Source: Candidatus Limnocylindria bacterium
GTDB taxonomy: Bacteria > Chloroflexota > Limnocylindria > QHBO01
Direction of reading: 5' to 3'
Assembly (NCBI GenBank): GCA_038248895.1
Contig: JBBRWZ010000004.1
Coordinates: forward strand, 1 to 61,494
DNA length: 61,494 nt
Below, piece by piece: positions 8,197-57,062 of this stretch (the stretch's first letter is position 1; each line of letters opens with the position of its first letter). The translations under genes and the position numbers were made by a program. A model generated the notes under the pieces. That model had not been told where the DNA came from and ran no database searches. It saw only the letters and a program-made list of their open reading frames with translations.

Positions 8197-8205
8197 CGCG
8201 GTCCC

Positions 8206-8377
8206 CGATGAATCGCCGACTTGACGCCAGATGGCGGGCGGGGGCGACGGGTCGCCGATTCATCGGTGTGCCAGGCGCCGGGACGGCCTCCCATGCCCCG
8301 GCAGGCGTCATCCGGACCGATGAATCGAACGGGCGACGCCGGGCGCAGCCACCAGGCGTCAAACCAGCACTTCATCG
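8206..8377. repeat. intergenic four-box palindromic element, copy A
   Basis: CGATGAATCG 8206, CGATTCATCG 8256, CGATGAATCG 8318, CACTTCATCG 8368; two ~60-bp units in inverted orientation. Confidence 0.8.
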
Positions 8378-8407
8378 CGGGGGCGCGCCCGCGCGACACG
8401 GGCAGGC

Positions 8408-40772: not shown

Positions 40773-41431
40773 GCTTCTTCGAGTCGCTGCGGCTGGCGAT
40801 CGCACTGGGCCTGACGCTGTTCCTGGTGCTGCTCCGCTTCGACTCGGATCGTATCGTCCGCTCCGACTACTTCCGCTACCGATCGAATTGGCTCGGACCG
40901 GCCAGCTACTACGCGCTGGTGCTGATCTTCGCGATCGGCATCGCCTTCATCCTCCCCGACGGACGACGGCAGCTGTTCCTGGCCGGCGGTGACCCGGACC
41001 GTGCGCTGCCGATCATGTTCCTCTTCCTGGCGGTGGCGCTGATCAACGCCGCGGCGCTGGCCTACCTCCGCTACGGGGGCATCCTCCCGCTGCCGTCGGC
41101 ACTCCTGCCGGACCGCATCCTGGGCGCGCTGATGAATGCCGTAGCGGAGGAGATCCAGTTCCGGTCGGTCGTCTTCGGCATGCTCATCTTCGCCGGCCTG
41201 CCGACCGGCCTGGCGCTGATCCTCCAGGCGCTTGTCTACGGCCTGGCGCACCGCCGCCTGTGGCAGGAACGCGACTGGTACTTCCTCGCGGGCTCGGTGA
41301 TCCTCGGCTACGCCGCGGGCCTCGCGACGCTCCACACCGGGTCGGTGATCCCGGCCATCGTCGGCCACTTCGCCGTCAGCATGGCCTTCTTCGCCTTCGC
41401 CGGCGGGCGTCTCCGCCAGCGCCCGATCTAG
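40769..41431 (+). CDS. CPBP (CAAX/Abi) intramembrane metalloprotease
   Basis: EEIQFR, YGLAH, AIVGH motifs; GTGA overlap with lepA. Confidence 0.85.
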
Positions 41432-41487
41432 CGCTTACCCGGCGCCGCATGCCCGCGGCGGTCGCGAACCGATAGGCTGCCTGGCTG

Positions 41488-42666
41488 ATGCCGTCCCATC
41501 ATCTCTACGTCCATGTCCCGTTCTGCCGCCTCGTCTGCGCCTACTGCGACTTCGTCACGGTAGGCGGGCGCGGCGAGGCGATTCCCCGCTACGTGGAGGC
41601 GCTCCTCGCCGAGATCGCGGCGCGTCCCCGGCCCGGGACGCTGCGCACGATCTATTTTGGCGGCGGCACGCCGTCGCTGCTGCCGGCGGACGCCGTCGGG
41701 CGCATCGTGGCGACGGCCGTGGGTGGATGGAGTGGGGCCGCGGTCGAGGAGGTGACGCTCGAGGCGAATCCGAGCCAGCGTGAGCGGCCGGACTGGGCGG
41801 CGCTGCGTTCCGCCGGCGTGACGCGGCTCAGCCTGGGAGTGCAGTCGCTGCGCGACGAGACGCTCGGCACGCTGGCGCGCGGGCACACCGTGGCCGAGGC
41901 GCGCTCGGCCTACGCGGCGGCACGTGCCGCCGGCTTCGATAACGTCAGCATCGACCTCATCTACGGCGTTCCCGGCCAGTCCCTCGCCGCCTGGCGCGAC
42001 GACCTCGGAACGGCACTTGCGCTCGATCCGCCGCCGGACCACCTCAGCCTCTATGCGCTCCAGCTGGCCCTGGCGCCGGACGAGTGGGCCGCACCGCCGC
42101 GCCCCGGCGCGCTGCGCTGGCGCCAGCGGCTCGGGGCGCGGCAGGACGATGACCTCGGGGCGAGGCAGTACCAGCTCGCGGAGGAGCTGCTCGAGGCCGG
42201 CGGCTACGAGCACTACGAGCTCAGCTCGTGGGCGCGGCCCGGGCGTGCGTCGCGGCACAACGGCGCCTACTGGGACCGTCGCGCGTACACCGGCATCGGG
42301 GCCGGCGCGCACTCGTATGACGGGGCGCGCCGCCGATCGTGGAACGAGCGCAACCTCGACGTGTATCTCGCACGCGTCGCGGCGGGGGAGCGACCGCTCG
42401 CCGGTGCGGAGGACCTCGACGACGCGGCGCTCGGTTTCGAGGCCGTCGCGCTCGGGCTGCGGCGCGTGACGGGCATCTCGCGTGCCGGCGTGCGCGCGGA
42501 GCTCGGGGCAGATCGAACGGCAGCGTTCGACGCGGCGCTGACGGTGGGCATCGAACGCGGCCTGCTCACCGCCAGCCACGATCGGATCAGCCTCTCGGCG
42601 GAGGGGCGGCTGCTTGCCAACGAGGCGTTGCTGCCCTTCGCGCCCGAGGCGCCGAGGGTGCGTTGA
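41488..42666 (+). CDS. hemW: radical SAM heme chaperone HemW
   Basis: LYVHVPFCRLVCAYCDF, FGGGTPS, HYELSS, HNGAYW. Confidence 0.9.
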   Translation: MPSHHLYVHVPFCRLVCAYCDFVTVGGRGEAIPRYVEALLAEIAARPRPGTLRTIYFGGGTPSLLPADAVGRIVATAVGGWSGAAVEEVTLEANPSQRERPDWAALRSAGVTRLSLGVQSLRDETLGTLARGHTVAEARSAYAAARAAGFDNVSIDLIYGVPGQSLAAWRDDLGTALALDPPPDHLSLYALQLALAPDEWAAPPRPGALRWRQRLGARQDDDLGARQYQLAEELLEAGGYEHYELSSWARPGRASRHNGAYWDRRAYTGIGAGAHSYDGARRRSWNERNLDVYLARVAAGERPLAGAEDLDDAALGFEAVALGLRRVTGISRAGVRAELGADRTAAFDAALTVGIERGLLTASHDRISLSAEGRLLANEALLPFAPEAPRVR

Positions 42667-52697: not shown

Positions 52698-53153
52698 ATG
52701 ACGCTCCTCGAGCGGATCGAGTCGGCGATGCGTGACGCGATGCGCGCGCGCGACGAGCGACGCACGATCACGCTGCGCAGCGCGATGGCGGCTGCCCACA
52801 ATCGGAAGATCGAGCTCGGGCGCGACCTCAGCGACGAGGAGATGCTGGACATCCTCGGCAAGGGGGTGAAGACGCGCCGAGAGAGCATCGCGATCTACCG
52901 CAACGCCGGACGTGAGGATCGCGCCGCGCCCGAGGAGGCGGAGGTCATCGTCCTCACCGAATTCCTGCCGCGACAGCTCACCGCCAATGAGGTCGAGGCG
53001 CTGGCGCGCGCCGCAATCGCCACCAGCGGTGCGAGCGGCCCGGCCGACATGGGACGCGTCATGGGCGCGCTCACGAAGGAGACGCGCGGCCGTGCCGACG
53101 GGCGGATGGTCTCCGACACGGTACGTCGCCTCCTGGCGGAGTCGGCCCCGTGA
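52698..53153 (+). CDS. GatB/YqeY domain protein
   Basis: AMRARD, RRESI..Y..AGR, FLPRQL, DMGRVMG, GRADG. Confidence 0.93.
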   Translation: MTLLERIESAMRDAMRARDERRTITLRSAMAAAHNRKIELGRDLSDEEMLDILGKGVKTRRESIAIYRNAGREDRAAPEEAEVIVLTEFLPRQLTANEVEALARAAIATSGASGPADMGRVMGALTKETRGRADGRMVSDTVRRLLAESAP

Positions 53154-55297
53154 CACGGGGCGGGCGCGCGCGACGCTCGGGTGCCTTCATCCCGCGCACC
53201 CTCGCCGAGCTCGAGGCGGGCGGACCGGGTCGCGCGGCGACGCTGCGCGCCGCGGCAGTGGTGGCGATCCTGGCGCTCGCCACCTTTGCGGTGCTCACCG
53301 TCAGCCTCGGCGGGTCCCAGGTCGACCTGGCCGTCGACGACATCGCCCCGGCCGACATCATCGCCCCCCAGGCGGTCACCTACCAGTCGACCATCCTCAC
53401 CGCTGCGAAGGCGCAGGCGGCCGCTGACGCGGTGGAGACGCAGTACGTCAACATCCGCCCGATTCCGGACATCGCGCAGCAGCAGGGCACCGCGCTCGAC
53501 GACCTGACGGCCGCCATCGGCGCGGTGCTCACCCAGGAGGCGCAGGGAGGCATCGACCCCGAGGAGGTGCCGGCCGCCATCCGTGACGTCGCTCCGCAGC
53601 TGAGCCCCGAGCAGGTCTCGATGATCGCCTCGATGAGCTCGACCCGGTGGCGCGCCATCGCCGGCGCCGCGAGCTCGGCGCTGGCCACCGCCCAGGGAAG
53701 CGCCATCCGGCAGGGTGAGCTGGAGCAGGCGAAGACCGCGGCGCGGGCCAACGTCACGGCCGACCTGTCCGATGCTGACCGGACGCTCGCGGGCGACCTC
53801 GTGGCCATGTACATCGCCGCCAACCAGCGCATCGACGAGATCGCCACGCAGCAGGCGCGCAACGAGGCGAGCAGCGCCGTCGACCCGGTCGTCATCTCGA
53901 TCCTGCCCACGCAGCGCATCATCCAAAAGGGCGACCGCGTCAGCGACACCGATGTCGAGGCGCTCCAGGAGCTTGGTCTCACCCGGCCCACCGTCGCCGC
54001 CGGCACGTTCGCCGGCCAGGGGCTGCTCTCGATCGTGCTGGCCGCGCTGCTCACCGGCTTCCTGTGGCGGTTCGAACCGGAGATCTGGCATCGCAACCGC
54101 TCCCTCCTCCTCTTCGTTCTCGCCTTCCTCGTCAGCGCCATCGCGATCCGCATCTCCGCCGACCGCCAGGTGTGGACCTACGTCGTCCCGACCAGCGCGG
54201 CGGTGCTCCTCATCGGCATCCTCCTCAACGCTTCGTCGGGAGCGGCACTGGCGGTGGGGTTGGCGGCGATGGCCGGCATCGCCAACCAGGACGGGCTCCA
54301 GCCAGCCCTGTACATCCTCGCCAGCGGCGCCGCCGCACTCATCACCATCGTGCGTGCGGAGCGACTCAACGCCTTCGTGCGCACCGGCGCGATGGTCGCC
54401 GTCACCAACGTCGTGGTCCTCGTCGCGTTCAACCTGATCGACCAGCAGGACGTCTCGACCGTCCTCCAGGCGGTGCTGGCGGGGCTCGTCAACGCCGGCT
54501 TGTCGGTCATCCTCGCCGTCGGCTCGTTTGCCACGCTGGGCAACGTGTTCGGCATCATGACCGTCTTCCAGCTGCTCGAGCTGGCGAACCCCTCGAACCG
54601 CCTGCTCCGCCGGCTGCTGCTCGAGACGCCGGGCACCTACCACCACGCCGTGATGGTCGGCAATCTCGCCGAGCGCGCCGCGGAGACCATCGGGGCGGAC
54701 CCGCTGCTGGCACGCGTCGCCGCCTACTACCACGACATCGGCAAGATGCGGAACCCGCTTGCCTTCATCGAGAACCAGGCCGGGGCGCGCAACATCCACG
54801 ACGACCTGGAGGCGGAGACGAGCGCGCGCATCATCGCCAGCCATATCCGGGACGGCATCGACCTCGGCTACGAGCACGGGCTGCCGGTGCAGATCATCGG
54901 CTTCATCCCGCAGCACCACGGGACGAGCAAGATGAGCTACTTCTACGGCAAGGCGCTCCGCGAGGTCGGGGGCAATGAGGAGCTCGTCGACGCGGAGCGG
55001 TTCCGCTATCCGGGCCCGCGGCCGCAGAGTCGCGAGGCGGCGATCCTCATGCTCTCCGACGGCGTGGAGGCATCGGTCCGGTCGCTCGACCGCAAGGACC
55101 CCGAATCGATCCGCGGCATGGTCGACCGTATCGTCGACGAGCGCGTCGCCGACGGCCAGCTCGAGGACGCCGACCTGACGCTCAAGGACATCACCTCCAT
55201 CAAGGAGGCGTTCGTCCAGCAGCTGCTGGGCATGTACCACTCGCGCATCAAGTACCCCGACAACGTCGTGCCGATGGAGCAGCGCGACCGCGCCTGA
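53150..55297 (+). CDS. 7TM-HD phosphohydrolase (PgpH-like c-di-AMP phosphodiesterase)
   Basis: extracellular domain, about 7 TM, PGTYHH, YYHDIGK, QHHGT, FRYPGPRP. Confidence 0.9.
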   Translation: MTRGGRARRSGAFIPRTLAELEAGGPGRAATLRAAAVVAILALATFAVLTVSLGGSQVDLAVDDIAPADIIAPQAVTYQSTILTAAKAQAAADAVETQYVNIRPIPDIAQQQGTALDDLTAAIGAVLTQEAQGGIDPEEVPAAIRDVAPQLSPEQVSMIASMSSTRWRAIAGAASSALATAQGSAIRQGELEQAKTAARANVTADLSDADRTLAGDLVAMYIAANQRIDEIATQQARNEASSAVDPVVISILPTQRIIQKGDRVSDTDVEALQELGLTRPTVAAGTFAGQGLLSIVLAALLTGFLWRFEPEIWHRNRSLLLFVLAFLVSAIAIRISADRQVWTYVVPTSAAVLLIGILLNASSGAALAVGLAAMAGIANQDGLQPALYILASGAAALITIVRAERLNAFVRTGAMVAVTNVVVLVAFNLIDQQDVSTVLQAVLAGLVNAGLSVILAVGSFATLGNVFGIMTVFQLLELANPSNRLLRRLLLETPGTYHHAVMVGNLAERAAETIGADPLLARVAAYYHDIGKMRNPLAFIENQAGARNIHDDLEAETSARIIASHIRDGIDLGYEHGLPVQIIGFIPQHHGTSKMSYFYGKALREVGGNEELVDAERFRYPGPRPQSREAAILMLSDGVEASVRSLDRKDPESIRGMVDRIVDERVADGQLEDADLTLKDITSIKEAFVQQLLGMYHSRIKYPDNVVPMEQRDRA

Positions 55298-55328
55298 TGC
55301 TGGACCGATGCGCCCGCCCTGCGGGCGC

Positions 55329-55876
55329 TCAGGCCGAGCCCAGGTCCGAAAATGGAAGTGGCTCGTCGGGCGGCTCGCCTCGTTCCATGAGGCCCATCCC
55401 GTACCACGCCACGCCGATCCAGCGGCCGGCCTTCCAGCCCACGCGGCGGTAGAGGCCGAGCTCCTCCATCCCGATCGCCCGATGAAGCGCCTCGCTGCCC
55501 GCGTTCGGCAGCGCAATGCCGGCGCACGCGTTGACGAGGCGCAGCCGGCGCAGGAGCGGCAGCAGCGCGGCGTAGAGGCGGCGGCCGATCCCGCGCCGAT
55601 GCCGTCCTGGATCGACGTACACGCTGATGTCGACCGACCAGCGATAGCCGGCGCGTTCACGATGTGGGCCGGCGTAGGCGTACCCGACGACGTCGTGCAT
55701 CTCGTCGATCGCCACCAGCCACGGGTGACGGGCCAGCGTTGCCGCCATCCGTGCGGCCATGGTCCGCGTGGTTGGCGCGGTGGCCTCGAGGGACGCGATC
55801 GTCTCCTCGACCGCGTGACGGTAGATCTCGGCGACACGATGCGCGTCGCGCTGCGGTCGGCGACCTGGACCGCCAC
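55329..55876 (-). CDS. phosphinothricin-acetyltransferase-like GNAT, apparently frameshifted near the 5' end
   Basis: GYAYA, SVYV..RRGIG, PNAGSEALH, GWKAGRW; the conserved N-terminal segment (DAHRVAEIY...SLE) lies upstream of the first in-frame start. Confidence 0.7.
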
Positions 55877-55954
55877 CGCCCGACCGGCGCGGGGCACGGT
55901 TCGGGTGGGCTGCTCACCGCGCCTGGGGGACGAGGTCGCTCCACCGCTCTTGTT

Positions 55955-56128
55955 CGATATATCGCCCGAACTGAGCGGGACCGATCCGGCCCGTCGAGGT
56001 TGATCGATATATCGAACACGGCTGCGCACGAGGCGTGCCGACGGGTACGGCTCACGCTCCCTGCGGACCGATATATCGAACAAACCCATCAGCACGGGGC
56101 CTTCCCGAGCGATCCATTCGATAAATCG
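55955..56128. repeat. intergenic four-box palindromic element, copy B
   Basis: CGATATATCG at 55955, 56005 and 56069; CGATAAATCG at 56119. Confidence 0.85.
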
Positions 56129-56264
56129 AACGGAAGGGGCTCGGCGCATTCCGACGTCCTCGGCGCCCGGCGCGGCTGGTGGTCACTCGGCGGCCGCGGC
56201 CGCGGCCGGTGGGGGTGCCGGACGGTGCGACGATCCAGGCGACGAAGAGTGCGGCGATGACCAT
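56052..56264 (-). CDS. possible small hydrophobic peptide
   Basis: AGGAGA SD then MVIAALFVAWIVAP; the 3' part runs into the repeat element, so the end is uncertain. Confidence 0.3.
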   Translation of the reverse strand: MVIAALFVAWIVAPSGTPTGRGRGRRVTTSRAGRRGRRNAPSPFRSIYRMDRSGRPRADGFVRYIGPQGA

Positions 56265-56437
56265 CGGTCTGTCTCCTGTACGTGGACTATTGGTGTCGAT
56301 CGATGGCAAGAGGGCTCCGTGGTTGGGCGGTGGGGATGTGCAGACAGCCTGAACCCCGAACATCGGTGTGACCAGCCCGAGCGCCGTCGCCGGCGTGTCC
56401 TCCTATGTGCACATGGCACACGGGGTGGCGCGACGTC

Positions 56438-56466
56438 TTGAGCGGGCGTGGTCCGTCGCCTAGGAT
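56438..56466 (+). promoter_or_regulatory. sigma-70 promoter (leaderless) for ybeY
   Basis: TTGAGC-N17-TAGGAT, ATG 8 nt later. Confidence 0.65.
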
Positions 56467-56474
56467 GACTTCCG

Positions 56475-57062
56475 ATGGACTGCAGGGTCACGATCCATGA
56501 TCGGGTCGGCAGCGAGCGACTCGCCTCGGCGGTCGAGCCGCTGACGGCCGACCAGGCTGCCTCGCTGCTCGAGGCGGCTGTTTCAGTCACGGCCCGGACG
56601 GCGCTCGGCGCACGGCCGTCCGAGGTTGAGCTGACCCTCACCGGCGACGCCGAGATGACGCACCTCAACTTCGATCACATGGGGGAGCGCGGACCGACCG
56701 ACGTCCTCTCGTTCCCGCTGCACGAGTGGGTCGTGGAGGGTGGTGCCTCCCATCTCACCGACGACGACGCCGTCCGCCCGCCCGGACCGATCCTCCTCGG
56801 TGACGTCGTCGTCGATCTCGACCAGGCGCTGCGGCAGGCGGCCGAGGGCTCGTGGTCGGTGGTCGAGGAGCTGGTCCTGCTCGCGATTCACGGGACGCTG
56901 CACCTGGTCGGGCACGACCACGCCGACCTCGACGAGGAGGCGGCGATGCGCGCCGTGGAGCACACCGTCCTCGGCACCATGCACCGGCGCCATCACGAGG
57001 TGGCGTGGCAGCCGGGATCACTGTTCGACCGCGCCGGCCATGCCGTGACCGGCGGCGTCTGA
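56475..57062 (+). CDS. ybeY: rRNA maturation RNase YbeY
   Basis: PTDVLSFP, LGDVV, HGTLHLVGHDH. Confidence 0.93.
   Translation: MDCRVTIHDRVGSERLASAVEPLTADQAASLLEAAVSVTARTALGARPSEVELTLTGDAEMTHLNFDHMGERGPTDVLSFPLHEWVVEGGASHLTDDDAVRPPGPILLGDVVVDLDQALRQAAEGSWSVVEELVLLAIHGTLHLVGHDHADLDEEAAMRAVEHTVLGTMHRRHHEVAWQPGSLFDRAGHAVTGGV

Follow-up and report, generated by a model that had tools for sequence, protein, structure and literature searches.

To our knowledge, interspersed palindromic repeats served by a dedicated enzyme are so far represented essentially by just the REP sequences and REPINs with RAYT, a Y1 transposase. REPs bear a conserved GTAG tetranucleotide at their 5′ end, and RAYT genes were reportedly found by Nunvar in 2010 to be flanked by REPs. 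The BIMEs of enterobacteria, which are linked to RAYT and bound by host IHF and gyrase, are intergenic mosaics in which palindromic units and conserved inter-unit motifs follow one another in a fixed order, and the controller (C) proteins of restriction–modification systems bind to pairs of palindromic boxes that precede the C gene itself. The Limnocylindria are abundant, uncultured bacteria of soils and fresh waters with small genomes. In the definitions given in PMC3337134, PMC3116915 and bioRxiv 10.1101/2022.05.22.493013, REPIN–RAYT systems comprise REP doublets and REP-associated tyrosine transposases. Here we describe a repeat family of a Limnocylindria genome together with a repeat-flanked gene of another type, a partnership of a kind that looks undescribed: no such repeat and enzyme pair was found in the literature searched, whose coverage stopped short of subscription journals, and the same search returned no paper on Limnocylindria with palindromic repeats, the decamer string in unrelated papers only and, for enzymes of this type beside repeats, a general survey and a paper on HUH enzymes.

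The window, the whole 61,494-nucleotide stretch analysed, belongs to a Limnocylindria (Chloroflexota) draft genome of 2.31 Mb whose assembly is 83% complete (G000). The window contains an element, copy B, with the following features.

55950..56133, + strand: solo four-box element, copy B, subfamily I, built as box 1–spacer A–box 2–spacer B–box 3–spacer C–box 4 (nhmmer, alignment)
55955..55964, no strand: box 1 core CGATATATCG
56005..56014, no strand: box 2 core CGATATATCG
56069..56078, no strand: box 3 core CGATATATCG
56119..56128, no strand: box 4 core CGATAAATCG
56015..56068, no strand: central spacer B with the inverted motif of the family, consensus GAGCGTGAG ... CTCACGCTC (consensus and conservation line of 24 aligned copies)
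56191..56208, no strand: short G+C tandem repeat, GCGGCC ×3, in the right flank of copy B (TRF)

The sequence-only reading had claimed four boxes whose starts are 50/64/50 nt apart, and the positions proved exact: allowing at most one mismatch, the window holds 4 box matches against 0.81 expected, and four or more occurred in 0 of 100 dinucleotide-preserving shuffles. The ungapped match it saw between unit 1 and the reverse complement of unit 2 corresponds to two inverted arms of 34 nt each (55951–55984 and 55985–56018) that are 74% complementary, and each box widens into a palindrome of 16–18 nt, (C)GTTCGAWAWWTCGAAC(G). An nhmmer model built from 24 genome copies detects copy B at E 4.6e-46, with 152 bits on the plus strand versus 114 bits on the minus strand. 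Copy B is a solo copy of a nested-palindromic intergenic repeat. The junctions around it are supported by a second assembler's contig, which spans 55300–56235 with one difference and probably derives from the source sample, of which this support is not independent. A terminator-like hairpin of doubtful meaning lies at 56098–56085 on the minus strand.

The exact decamer occurs 36 times in G000, versus 0 for the reversed control, and box offsets of 0/50/114/164 are kept in 29 clusters. Iterated nhmmer searches converge on 84 loci, 74 of them near full length, establishing a family of repeats about 185 bp long in which three semi-conserved spacers join four boxes; the loci fall into three subfamilies, with the box spacing and a CGAT-NN-ATCG core common to all. 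The spacers are about 62% identical between copies, which we read as the mark of old copies with no recent burst visible. The same iterated model recovers a second element of the window, in agreement with the earlier proposal that copies A and B are one repeated unit.

8198..8387, − strand: likely copy A, a subfamily II member with boxes CGATGAATCG / CGATTCATCG and GACGCC..GGCGTC spacers (iterated nhmmer)

Copy A shares the architecture of copy B, and none of 7 relatives has it at the orthologous site. The possibility that copy B serves one local regulator as its operator and has nothing to do with copy A, raised at the outset as what would refute the reading, was rejected, as the 84 loci of the family are spread over more than 50 contigs and all kinds of gene context and copy A belongs to the same superfamily.

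In organization the family is close to REPIN populations. Both consist of short, non-coding, palindromic intergenic repeats with inverted halves, present in tens of copies and patchy and lineage-specific in their distribution. The differences lie in four boxes at rigid spacing where REPINs have two REPs, in flanks of G+C-rich tandem repeats and in the lack of any sign of hairpin selection. The overall inverted symmetry of the element is real, and the fold of copy A is a single long hairpin (−116.5 kcal/mol), but boxes 2 and 3 are direct copies of each other and copy B folds otherwise, so that a REPIN-type hairpin is no more than a possibility; no GTAG was found at the box edges in the consensus of 24 or of 77 copies. 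BIMEs likewise are mosaics of palindromic units in fixed order between genes, from another lineage and with other sequences, and the candidate binder here is a dedicated, flanked gene. With MITEs derived from DDE insertion sequences the family has in common its size, non-coding nature, terminal symmetry and multi-copy intergenic spread, unlike them showing neither a target-site duplication nor a parent insertion sequence with matching ends, and its associated gene is flanked by two complete elements, not two half-ends. That the elements are classical MITEs, internally deleted from a DDE insertion sequence, or REPs or REPINs moved by a Y1 RAYT would fit small, intergenic, multi-copy units symmetric about their centre, yet we find it barely credible. 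Y1_Tnp (PF01797) was absent from all 31 genomes of the taxonomic family that were searched (0/31; MAGs 55–97% complete), G000 and the element-bearing G002, G003 and G008 included, whereas control genomes were positive in 6 of 14 cases. DDE_Tnp_1, IS110 and TnpB gave 0 matches in G000, and its sole rve genes belong to two IS481-type elements with TGT-type inverted ends unrelated to the boxes.

Single copies fold better than their shuffles, copy B with z −3.9 on either strand and copy A with z −4.6, as would be expected if the elements were structured small RNAs or acted as regulatory hairpins at the RNA level. Comparison between copies points the other way and makes such a role very improbable. 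The RNAalifold consensus is weak, at −6.5 and −8.3 kcal/mol, and incurs a covariation penalty, and compensation between spacers A and C is not copy-specific (0.63 within versus 0.63 between copies). A scan of all alignment columns for pairing, uninformative for the boxes since a box column was missing from the alignment, gave a single helix of 3 bp. An excess of G·T over A·C pairs is absent on both strands, in a wobble test for which 194 of 308 boxes were placed by their core pattern. Rfam searches of 55000–57000 gave no match at E<0.25, the single hit under permissive filters being a chance-level one (E 0.25) outside the element. Promoter-like sites numbered 0, and the orientation of elements relative to genes is unbiased (19 versus 25).

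Copy B lies between the 7TM-HD and ybeY genes, in an interval that had been called disturbed. The genes and remnants concerned are as follows.

53150..55297, + strand: 7TM-HD gene (Pfam 7TMR-HDED, 7TM-7TMR_HD, HD)
55329..55913, − strand: GNAT acetyltransferase remnant (Pfam Acetyltransf_1/_4/_7 on 55329–55760; translation against the G002 orthologue; ORF list)
55914..55941, − strand: 3′ terminus of the ancestral small ORF, left stranded (aligned pairwise with G002 and G006)
56052..56264, − strand: small ORF as now read, 70 codons (translation; alignments to G002, G006 and G007)
56475..57062, + strand: ybeY (Pfam YbeY, E 3.5e-27)

HD and ybeY are indeed separated by the element, a GNAT remnant and an interrupted small ORF. 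In the three same-genus relatives that keep both flanks (G002, G006 and G007), the minus strand of the interval carries amt, a 43-codon ORF and GNAT, with GNAT and the small-ORF head adjacent and no element between them; in relatives, the TGA that closes the small ORF shares bases with the start of GNAT (GTGA). In G000, only the first ~15 residues of the small ORF (MVIAAL...) are homologous to the 43-codon ORF, and the remainder is translated inserted DNA that runs through boxes 4 and 3. The 31 nt around the small-ORF start are 100% identical in G001, and the GCGGCC repeat is part of ~80 nt of extra DNA between copy B and this conserved head. The GNAT gene is damaged, as had been claimed: its frame is open, but other sequence stands in place of the native start and the first ~12 residues, the earliest in-frame start codon being the one at 55760. 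The tiny ORF noted earlier is present on the minus strand, starting at 56264 and not at 56272. The ammonium transporter gene, found between the small ORF and ybeY in G001 and G002 (where tested), is absent from the interval in G000, so that copy B, amt loss and GNAT damage co-occur at one locus.

Alignment of the interval across seven same-genus relatives contradicts the idea that element and GNAT were gained together, since GNAT is present in 5 of the 7 and the small-ORF start is matched in 6 of the 7, whereas no element was found in any of the fetched HD–ybeY loci. Copy B is a later insertion into the small ORF, in G000 only. The proposal that the element marks gene gain and loss stands in part: elements of the family are gained and lost between species and sit at synteny breaks, but neither GNAT nor the tiny ORF came in with copy B.

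The turnover of the family between species is established by flank mapping. For nine elements of relatives, both flanks could be mapped to G000, where 5 of the sites are empty, 3 filled and 1 rearranged. One empty site lies within the window.

41429..41498, no strand: empty site; a full element stands at the orthologous intergenic spot of G002 (flank mapping, alignment)

At one common site G000 and G005 carry different subfamilies, and the spacers of seemingly orthologous copies are no more alike than those of random copies, so that orthology of the element itself cannot be assumed. A two-box pattern is found in 37 of 103 genomes of the taxonomic family (6/6 in genus g1, 23/33 in g2), with up to 40 matches per strand per genome; it stays at chance level in four sister families, and several same-genus genomes more than 90% complete have zero matches. 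The target-site duplications that the sequence-only reading proposed to look for were not seen: at boundary offsets from −3 to +5, no duplication of 3–9 nt was common to four or more of 24 copies, and only trivial 2-nt matches occurred, a result that also speaks against the MITE and REP readings, although duplications could have been lost from old copies. No clean empty-versus-filled junction was recovered, the intergenic DNA being too diverged; with neither duplication nor junction, the chemistry of transposition is not readable. Insertion into pre-existing hairpins was considered and rejected (flank complementarity 6.55 within a copy versus 6.64 between copies). Taken together, the 84 loci, the presence/absence differences between species and the insertion into a small ORF suggest that the family behaves as non-autonomous mobile DNA.

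A candidate partner is a gene encoding a protein of ~225 residues that combines an XRE-HTH with a PD-(D/E)xK fold. At 20 top-tier orthologue loci (≥185 bits, six genera), elements flank this gene on both sides in 13 cases, on one side in 5 and on neither in 2 (E<0.01), the loci within genus g1 being syntenic and hence not independent observations; a cut at ≥25 bits and ≤260 nt gives 9, 6 and 5. Boxes also stand on both sides of the gene in two further high-copy genomes, and in 6 loci the stop codon of the gene forms the centre of a box (CGA-TAG/TGA/TAA-ATCG), establishing an association between gene and repeat. As with RAYT, this is a low-copy, repeat-flanked gene that is syntenic and apparently vertically inherited, here for a different protein. 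The G000 assembly holds no cognate top-tier gene, and, with the syntenic region missing and the assembly 83% complete, this indicates neither absence nor presence. Among five other high-copy genomes, two (75% and 80% complete) have no partner match and one has a pseudogene and a fragment only.

The flanked gene could also be read after the manner of solo LTRs, the mobile unit being an element–gene–element cassette of ~1.05 kb whose direct repeats recombine to delete the gene and leave solo elements, so that the element never moves alone. Flanking copies are indeed direct where this can be told, and slightly more alike than unrelated copies (similarity 0.71 direct, 0.64 inverted and 0.65 background, with 0.83 in G002, on orientation calls that rest on 0–11 bits); those of G019 are 93% identical over 189 nt. 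The full four-box build is common to solo and flanking elements, and top-tier gene copies number 1–4 per genome, some broken by stop codons. However, the gene occupies a single syntenic locus in five species of the genus and is not scattered, no orthologous site was seen to alternate between cassette and solo element from genome to genome, and 84 solo elements beside no assembled cognate gene would call for many cassette insertions, each then deleted. We therefore regard gene loss from cassettes as an unlikely origin of the solo copies.

The AF2 model of the partner protein (pLDDT 93) divides into two domains with well-established folds. Residues 7–81 match the HTHs of HipB and C proteins with Z 9–10 (VIA-align; HipB best, Z 10.2) and superpose on C.BclI, C.AhdI and HipB. 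Together with TIGR03070, matched by 22 of 23 members at E up to 0.01, and Pfam HTH_31, matched by one member at E 1.2e-4 (22.7 bits, under the 27-bit cut-off), this identifies the predicted N-terminal domain as an XRE/Cro-C1 five-helix HTH. Residues 91–221 align with NucS (2vld_B) at Z 11.0 and an r.m.s.d. of 2.7 over 100 residues, and Foldseek finds NucS/EndoMS at a probability of 0.99. Further matches to AF1548 (Z 9.6), XisH (2okf, Z 9.2), Can2/Card1 (Z 7.3–8.2) and the R2 endonuclease domain agree with a predicted restriction-endonuclease-like α/β core of the PD-(D/E)xK fold. The partner is thereby set apart from the Y1/HUH transposase of REPIN–RAYT. Among the Pfam, NCBIfam and source names that the searches gave, none describes the fusion or its C-terminal domain, the sources giving an XRE/HTH protein only. 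Across 23 sequences, E112, D123, E136, D143, Q145, Q147, K154 and R155 are invariant, whereas the canonical (D/E)xK lysine is replaced by E138, followed by R, in at least 90%, which leaves catalysis uncertain; K154 and R155 lie on the next helix after the motif, and a relocated catalytic lysine is possible on this model. Among the ORFs listed at two loci we noticed neither a methyltransferase nor a toxin partner, and, in contrast to restriction–modification, the putatively recognized motif is enriched in the genome, not avoided.

We propose that the boxes are the DNA sites of these proteins, in a system that follows the logic of REPIN–RAYT with an unrelated enzyme class. An HTH dimer would bind the boxes, the nuclease domain would cut at or near them, and binding and cutting together would spread or maintain the copies. 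We give this reading, jointly with the mobility of the family, a probability of roughly 0.7. Against it count the lack of a cognate gene in the G000 assembly and the gaps in other high-copy genomes, the replaced lysine, the missing target-site duplications and clean junctions, the age of the copies, the few bits behind the orientation calls and the synteny of the g1 loci. A bolder version, possible but tentative, would make the system a new class of mobile DNA, in which the HTH-guided nuclease recognizes four-box modules and cuts their borders, and repair of the breaks copies the modules. The G+C-rich tandem duplications and the C-rich/G-rich skew of the flanks would then be repair scars, protein clades and boxes would co-diverge, and several replicator populations would coexist in one small genome.

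The genomic context of the elements bears on a further reading, in which the protein, its nuclease dead, serves as a regulator or nucleoid protein and the modules are its binding arrays, kept by selection on the host; at gene ends, for instance, they might act as barriers to transcription from both directions. On crude GC3-based ORF calls with 73% coverage, which make context counts approximate, all 84 loci are intergenic except 7 that overlap doubtful ORFs, and no recurrent neighbour gene was found among 142 flanking ORFs. The median distance from an element is 84 nt to a 3′ end, against 166 nt to a 5′ end, with 15 convergent versus 7 divergent contexts, and on either side the strand read in the direction of the element is rich in C. 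Binding arrays of this kind would also account for boxes and spacing that are conserved while the spacer middles drift, for the replaced lysine of the nuclease motif and for an extra box just upstream of the partner gene in four genomes, reminiscent of an autoregulatory operator. Against them stand the very patchy distribution, the frequent presence/absence differences at orthologous sites, the insertion of copy B into an ORF and the unbiased orientation, and we consider a host function improbable.

If the partnership of repeat and nuclease-fold protein is real, a second, unrelated enzyme class in another phylum would have its own repeats, implying that this lifestyle arose more than once, and a 225-residue protein with a 10-bp box would offer a tractable test case. 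Such repeats can disrupt genes, as in the amt–small ORF–GNAT operon of G000. They also break MAG assemblies, 11 of the 84 elements being no more than 300 nt from a contig end where about 4% would be expected, and hide the partner gene in short contigs. Database relatives of the protein form at least 493 clusters, mostly on contigs of 1–2 kb, as expected of a gene between repeats.

Lower-tier homologues of the partner gene match the element model at 0 of 10 loci, and all three lower-tier paralogues examined adjoin palindromic boxes of their own: in G000 (contig C13) and G019 the boxes flank the gene on both sides, 50–53 nt apart, and in G125 they are confined to its upstream side. The G000 paralogue (C13:38148–38801) is 42% identical to the top-tier protein, and the genome holds weaker or broken copies besides; its boxes recur in only 1–2 solo copies elsewhere.

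The four-box array at copy B is as the sequence-only reading described it, with CGATATATCG at 55955, 56005 and 56069, CGATAAATCG at 56119 and a spacing of 50/64/50. The whole 61.5-kb window holds exactly these four matches to the box with at most one mismatch, against 0.81 expected, and four were reached in 0 of 100 shuffles of the window. Taken in full, each box is a palindrome of 16-18 nt, (C)GTTCGAWAWWTCGAAC(G). The proposed inversion of one unit relative to the other was also recovered: the array's left half is self-complementary about 55984/55985, with 34-nt arms that are 74% complementary. The stretch 55300-56235 is also covered, with one difference, by a contig that a second assembler built, probably from the same sample.

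Copy B is a solo member of a dispersed repeat family. There are 36 exact copies of the decamer in this draft genome (2.31 Mb in 129 contigs, 70.6% G+C, 83% complete) versus 0 of the reversed control, and the offsets 0/50/114/164 are kept in 29 clusters when one mismatch is allowed. A profile search returned 31 strong copies, and its iteration converged at 84 loci, of which 74 are close to full length; we rejected a local, single-site role for the boxes on account of this dispersal. Alignment of 24 complete copies, among which a single-base difference is the only length variation, showed conserved boxes and conserved ends of all three spacers, with variable spacer middles. Boxes 2 and 3 both read GACCGAWAWWTCGAAC in this alignment and are direct copies, not mirror images, so the element is polar. 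Three subfamilies have this architecture and a CGAT-NN-ATCG core in common:

Subfamily I: boxes TTCGATATATCGAA
Subfamily II: boxes CCGATGAATCGG / TTCGATTCATCGG, spacers GACGCC..GGCGTC
Subfamily III: boxes GGTGATGGATCACC-like

The iterated search assigns the window's other member, 8198-8387 (-), presumably the copy A of the sequence-only reading, to subfamily II, which places copies A and B in one family as that reading held. Elements also occur as adjacent pairs or longer arrays (L084 / L022, at G008 C16:121869-122267; L088; contigs C58, C48, C39 and C64 of the draft genome), one array having box spacings of 50, 75, 50, 50, 50, 64 and 50.

The surroundings of copy B are laid out as follows:

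53150-55297 (+), 7TM-HD gene
55760 (-), next in-frame start of the GNAT remnant, which lacks its native start and first ~12 residues
55914-55941 (-), stranded last codons of the small ORF
55950-56133, the element (copy B)
56264 (-), start of the small ORF, with its ribosome-binding site and first ~15 codons kept
56273-56474, the only ~200 nt left where relatives carry amt
56475-57062 (+), ybeY

In same-genus relatives, the interval between 7TM-HD and ybeY is occupied by a minus-strand operon of amt, a 43-codon ORF and a GNAT gene. In the two relatives tested, G001 and G002, amt encodes a 424-residue ammonium transporter (PF00909, E 5.8e-126) and lies between the small ORF and ybeY (L029 2689-3963; L025 4-621). 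The relatives' 43-codon ORF starts MVIAAL, and its TGA overlaps the GTG start of the GNAT gene (GTGA). The GNAT was matched in five of seven relatives and the small-ORF start in six of seven; no element was detected in this interval in the loci fetched from all seven same-genus relatives. The GNAT and the small-ORF head adjoin without an element in the three genomes that keep both (G002, G006 and G007). In the draft genome, amt is missing from the interval and ~270 nt, including the element and ~80 nt with (GCGGCC)3, separate the head of the small ORF from its stranded end, so that the present small ORF runs for 70 codons into the element. Set against the element-free operon of the relatives, this arrangement makes the element a late insertion into an interval whose GNAT and small ORF are ancestral. 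The stretch is thus disturbed, as the sequence-only reading proposed, but neither the GNAT nor the tiny ORF was gained with the element. The 31 nt at 56247-56277 (-), which include the small ORF's ribosome-binding site and initial codons, are 94-100% identical across species (L024-L032), unlike the remainder of this hydrophobic ORF, which drifts; it may encode a small membrane protein or an amt-operon leader.

Gain and loss of elements between species is apparent at other sites. The orthologous site of copy A lacks an element in seven relatives. Nine elements of relatives could be mapped to the draft genome with both flanks, the others mapping to contig ends; five of these sites are empty (one at window 41429-41498), three are filled and one is rearranged. 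One filled site holds a subfamily III element in the draft genome and a subfamily I element in relative G005. At a site on contig C13 the boxes agree across species and the spacers are no closer than those of random copies, so the same sites may have been hit repeatedly, or copies replaced. Separately, the element and flanks at C34:11750-12050 are identical to G005 (L133) at 274 of 305 positions, with 94% identity over 699 nt of left flank, versus about 77-81% in other compared regions; recent exchange, or strong conservation of the locus, may account for this likeness.

Conventional mobilisers offered no match. No target-site duplication of at least 3 nt, the hallmark that the sequence-only reading had suggested looking for, is common to four or more of the 24 copies. 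DDE_Tnp_1, IS110 and TnpB gave no matches in the draft genome, and Y1_Tnp gave none there or in any of the 31 genomes searched in the taxonomic family, a set that includes it. The only two rve genes are both IS481-type, with transposases 30% identical to each other:

C62:6587-7575 (L125 1261-2279), IS481-family insertion sequence 1
C66 (L124 1266-2334), IS481-family insertion sequence 2

Both were rejected as mobilisers, having their own 22-31 nt TGT-type inverted ends, unrelated to the boxes. From the accessible descriptions of it, the REPIN-RAYT system follows the closest known logic; its defining enzyme is the Y1 protein that is not present here.

The elements are instead associated with a gene for a ~225-residue protein. 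The two elements detected in G001 flank a 228-codon ORF, whose family numbers 2-9 members in each genome of the genus, some with disrupting stop codons, and was detected in 65 of 111 taxonomic-family genomes (E<=1e-25; the tally takes in the unpublished genome G011). Among the best 20 partner loci (>=185 bits, six genera), 13 have an element on both sides, five on one side and two on neither (E<0.01). A stricter cut (>=25 bits, <=260 nt, own ORF limits) gives 9, 6 and 5, one locus being dropped solely because its read-through ORF was drawn too long. Of five further high-copy genomes, two have intact genes with boxes on both sides and one has a pseudogene together with a fragment cut by the contig end; in the remaining two (75% and 80% complete) no partner gene was found. 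In most loci a gap of 17-73 nt separates the upstream element from the start codon, and in 7-8 loci the downstream element starts at the stop codon. Six loci have the stop codon itself as a box centre (CGA-TAG/TGA/TAA-ATCG). Flanking pairs are slightly more alike in direct (0.71) than in inverted (0.64) comparison, against a background of 0.65. Four genomes (L143 1431, L144 141, L156, L160) have one more box, CGACTAATCG, which departs slightly from the others and is placed after the upstream element and ahead of the start codon; it could be an autoregulatory operator. Five species of the genus have the gene at a syntenic position, and G002 has additional flanked copies elsewhere; both the top-tier gene and the syntenic region are missing from the 83% complete draft assembly.

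The element model matched none of 10 lower-tier loci (146-158 bits). A lower-tier paralogue in the draft genome (within C13:37900-39100; L146 1289-2418) has boxes of its own, TACGACC-N4-GGTCGTA and CATGAC-N6-GTCATG, spaced 51-53 nt and forming mirror arrays of three on both sides, adjoined by a (GCAACGACCACT)4 tandem repeat; just 1-2 solo copies of these boxes occur elsewhere in the genome. Another, in G019, also has its own boxes on both sides, in 189-nt direct repeats that are 93% identical and have a 50-nt internal period, and one in G125 has ACCACGT..ACGTGGT boxes on its upstream side only.

The partner protein was modelled with confidence by AF2 (pLDDT 93). Residues 7-81 are predicted to form a HipB / C-protein-type HTH (Z 9-10) and residues 91-221 a restriction-endonuclease-like fold, with the NucS nuclease domain as the top match (Z 11.0, rmsd 2.7, 100 residues aligned), ahead of AF1548, XisH, Can2/Card1 and the R2 endonuclease domain. 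Pfam returned a weak HTH_31 only and NCBIfam HTH families only. An alignment of 23 sequences has 15 invariant columns, including D89, E112, D123, E136, D143, Q145, Q147, K154 and R155. The (D/E)xK lysine is glutamate in nearly all members, so nuclease activity is putative. A large protein database holds at least 493 clusters of the family; their names go no further than XRE/HTH regulator, and most lie on contigs of 1-2 kb. The boxes are most likely binding sites of this flanked HTH-nuclease-fold protein; the data establish the association and the architecture, and we infer that the protein would bind, cut and mobilise the elements. A solo-LTR-like origin and a host function of the elements are less likely alternatives. 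The literature searched gave no description of such a repeat-gene system.

A structured RNA was considered and, as far as can be seen, does not account for the array. Single copies fold more stably than shuffles (z -3.9 to -4.6); the consensus fold of the alignment, which incurs a covariation penalty, reaches only -6.5 and -8.3 kcal/mol. Complementarity between spacers A and C is not copy-specific (0.63 within a copy versus 0.63-0.65 with other copies), neither strand has an excess of G.T over A.C mismatches, and an Rfam search gave no match. The symmetry of the array therefore resides in conserved sequence motifs, as expected of sites read by a protein.

By crude GC3-based ORF picking, which covers 73% of the genome, all 84 loci are intergenic except seven that overlap doubtful ORFs. 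Of the 84, 30 lie in ++ and 20 in -- contexts, 15 between convergent and 7 between divergent genes, and 12 at a contig edge; the 15:7 ratio compares with a background of about 1:1. The median distance from an element is 84 nt for 3' gene ends and 166 nt for 5' ends, and orientation relative to co-directional genes is the same in 19 cases, opposite in 25 and ambiguous in six. A contig end lies within 300 nt of 11 of the 84 elements, versus about 4.4% of the genome. Short, G+C-rich tandem repeats of period 6-28 adjoin the elements: at TRF score >=40 they occur in 27 of 144 flanks versus 16 of 600 control intergenic windows (odds ratio 8.4, p 1e-10), and at score 24 in 51 of 144 versus 90 of 600. 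The right flank of copy B (56134-56215) holds one at 56191-56208. GC skew is -0.115 (C-rich) in the 30 nt to the left and +0.095 (G-rich) in the 30 nt to the right (paired test, p 3e-7). Read towards the element, it is -0.130 by 3' gene ends and -0.081 by 5' ends, versus about 0 in element-free intergenic DNA; the mirror skew belongs to the element, not to gene ends. No copy-specific complementarity between the two flanks was found. These flank features could be repair scars of repeated cutting, reflect a target preference or represent rut-like C-rich approaches.

Of 103 other genomes in the taxonomic family, 37 contain the two-box pattern GATNNATC-N42-GATNNATC, including 6/6 of genus g1 and 23/33 of g2, with 0 to 40 matches per strand and genome (tallies take in the unpublished genomes G304 and G248); four sister families are at chance level, with 1-2 hits per genome. 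Elements with 50/64/50 or 50/63 spacing were also seen on MAG contigs of 65-72% G+C labelled Gemmatimonadales and Steroidobacteraceae (L040, L046, L047, L086, L096), which could be mis-binned Limnocylindria or reflect horizontal spread.
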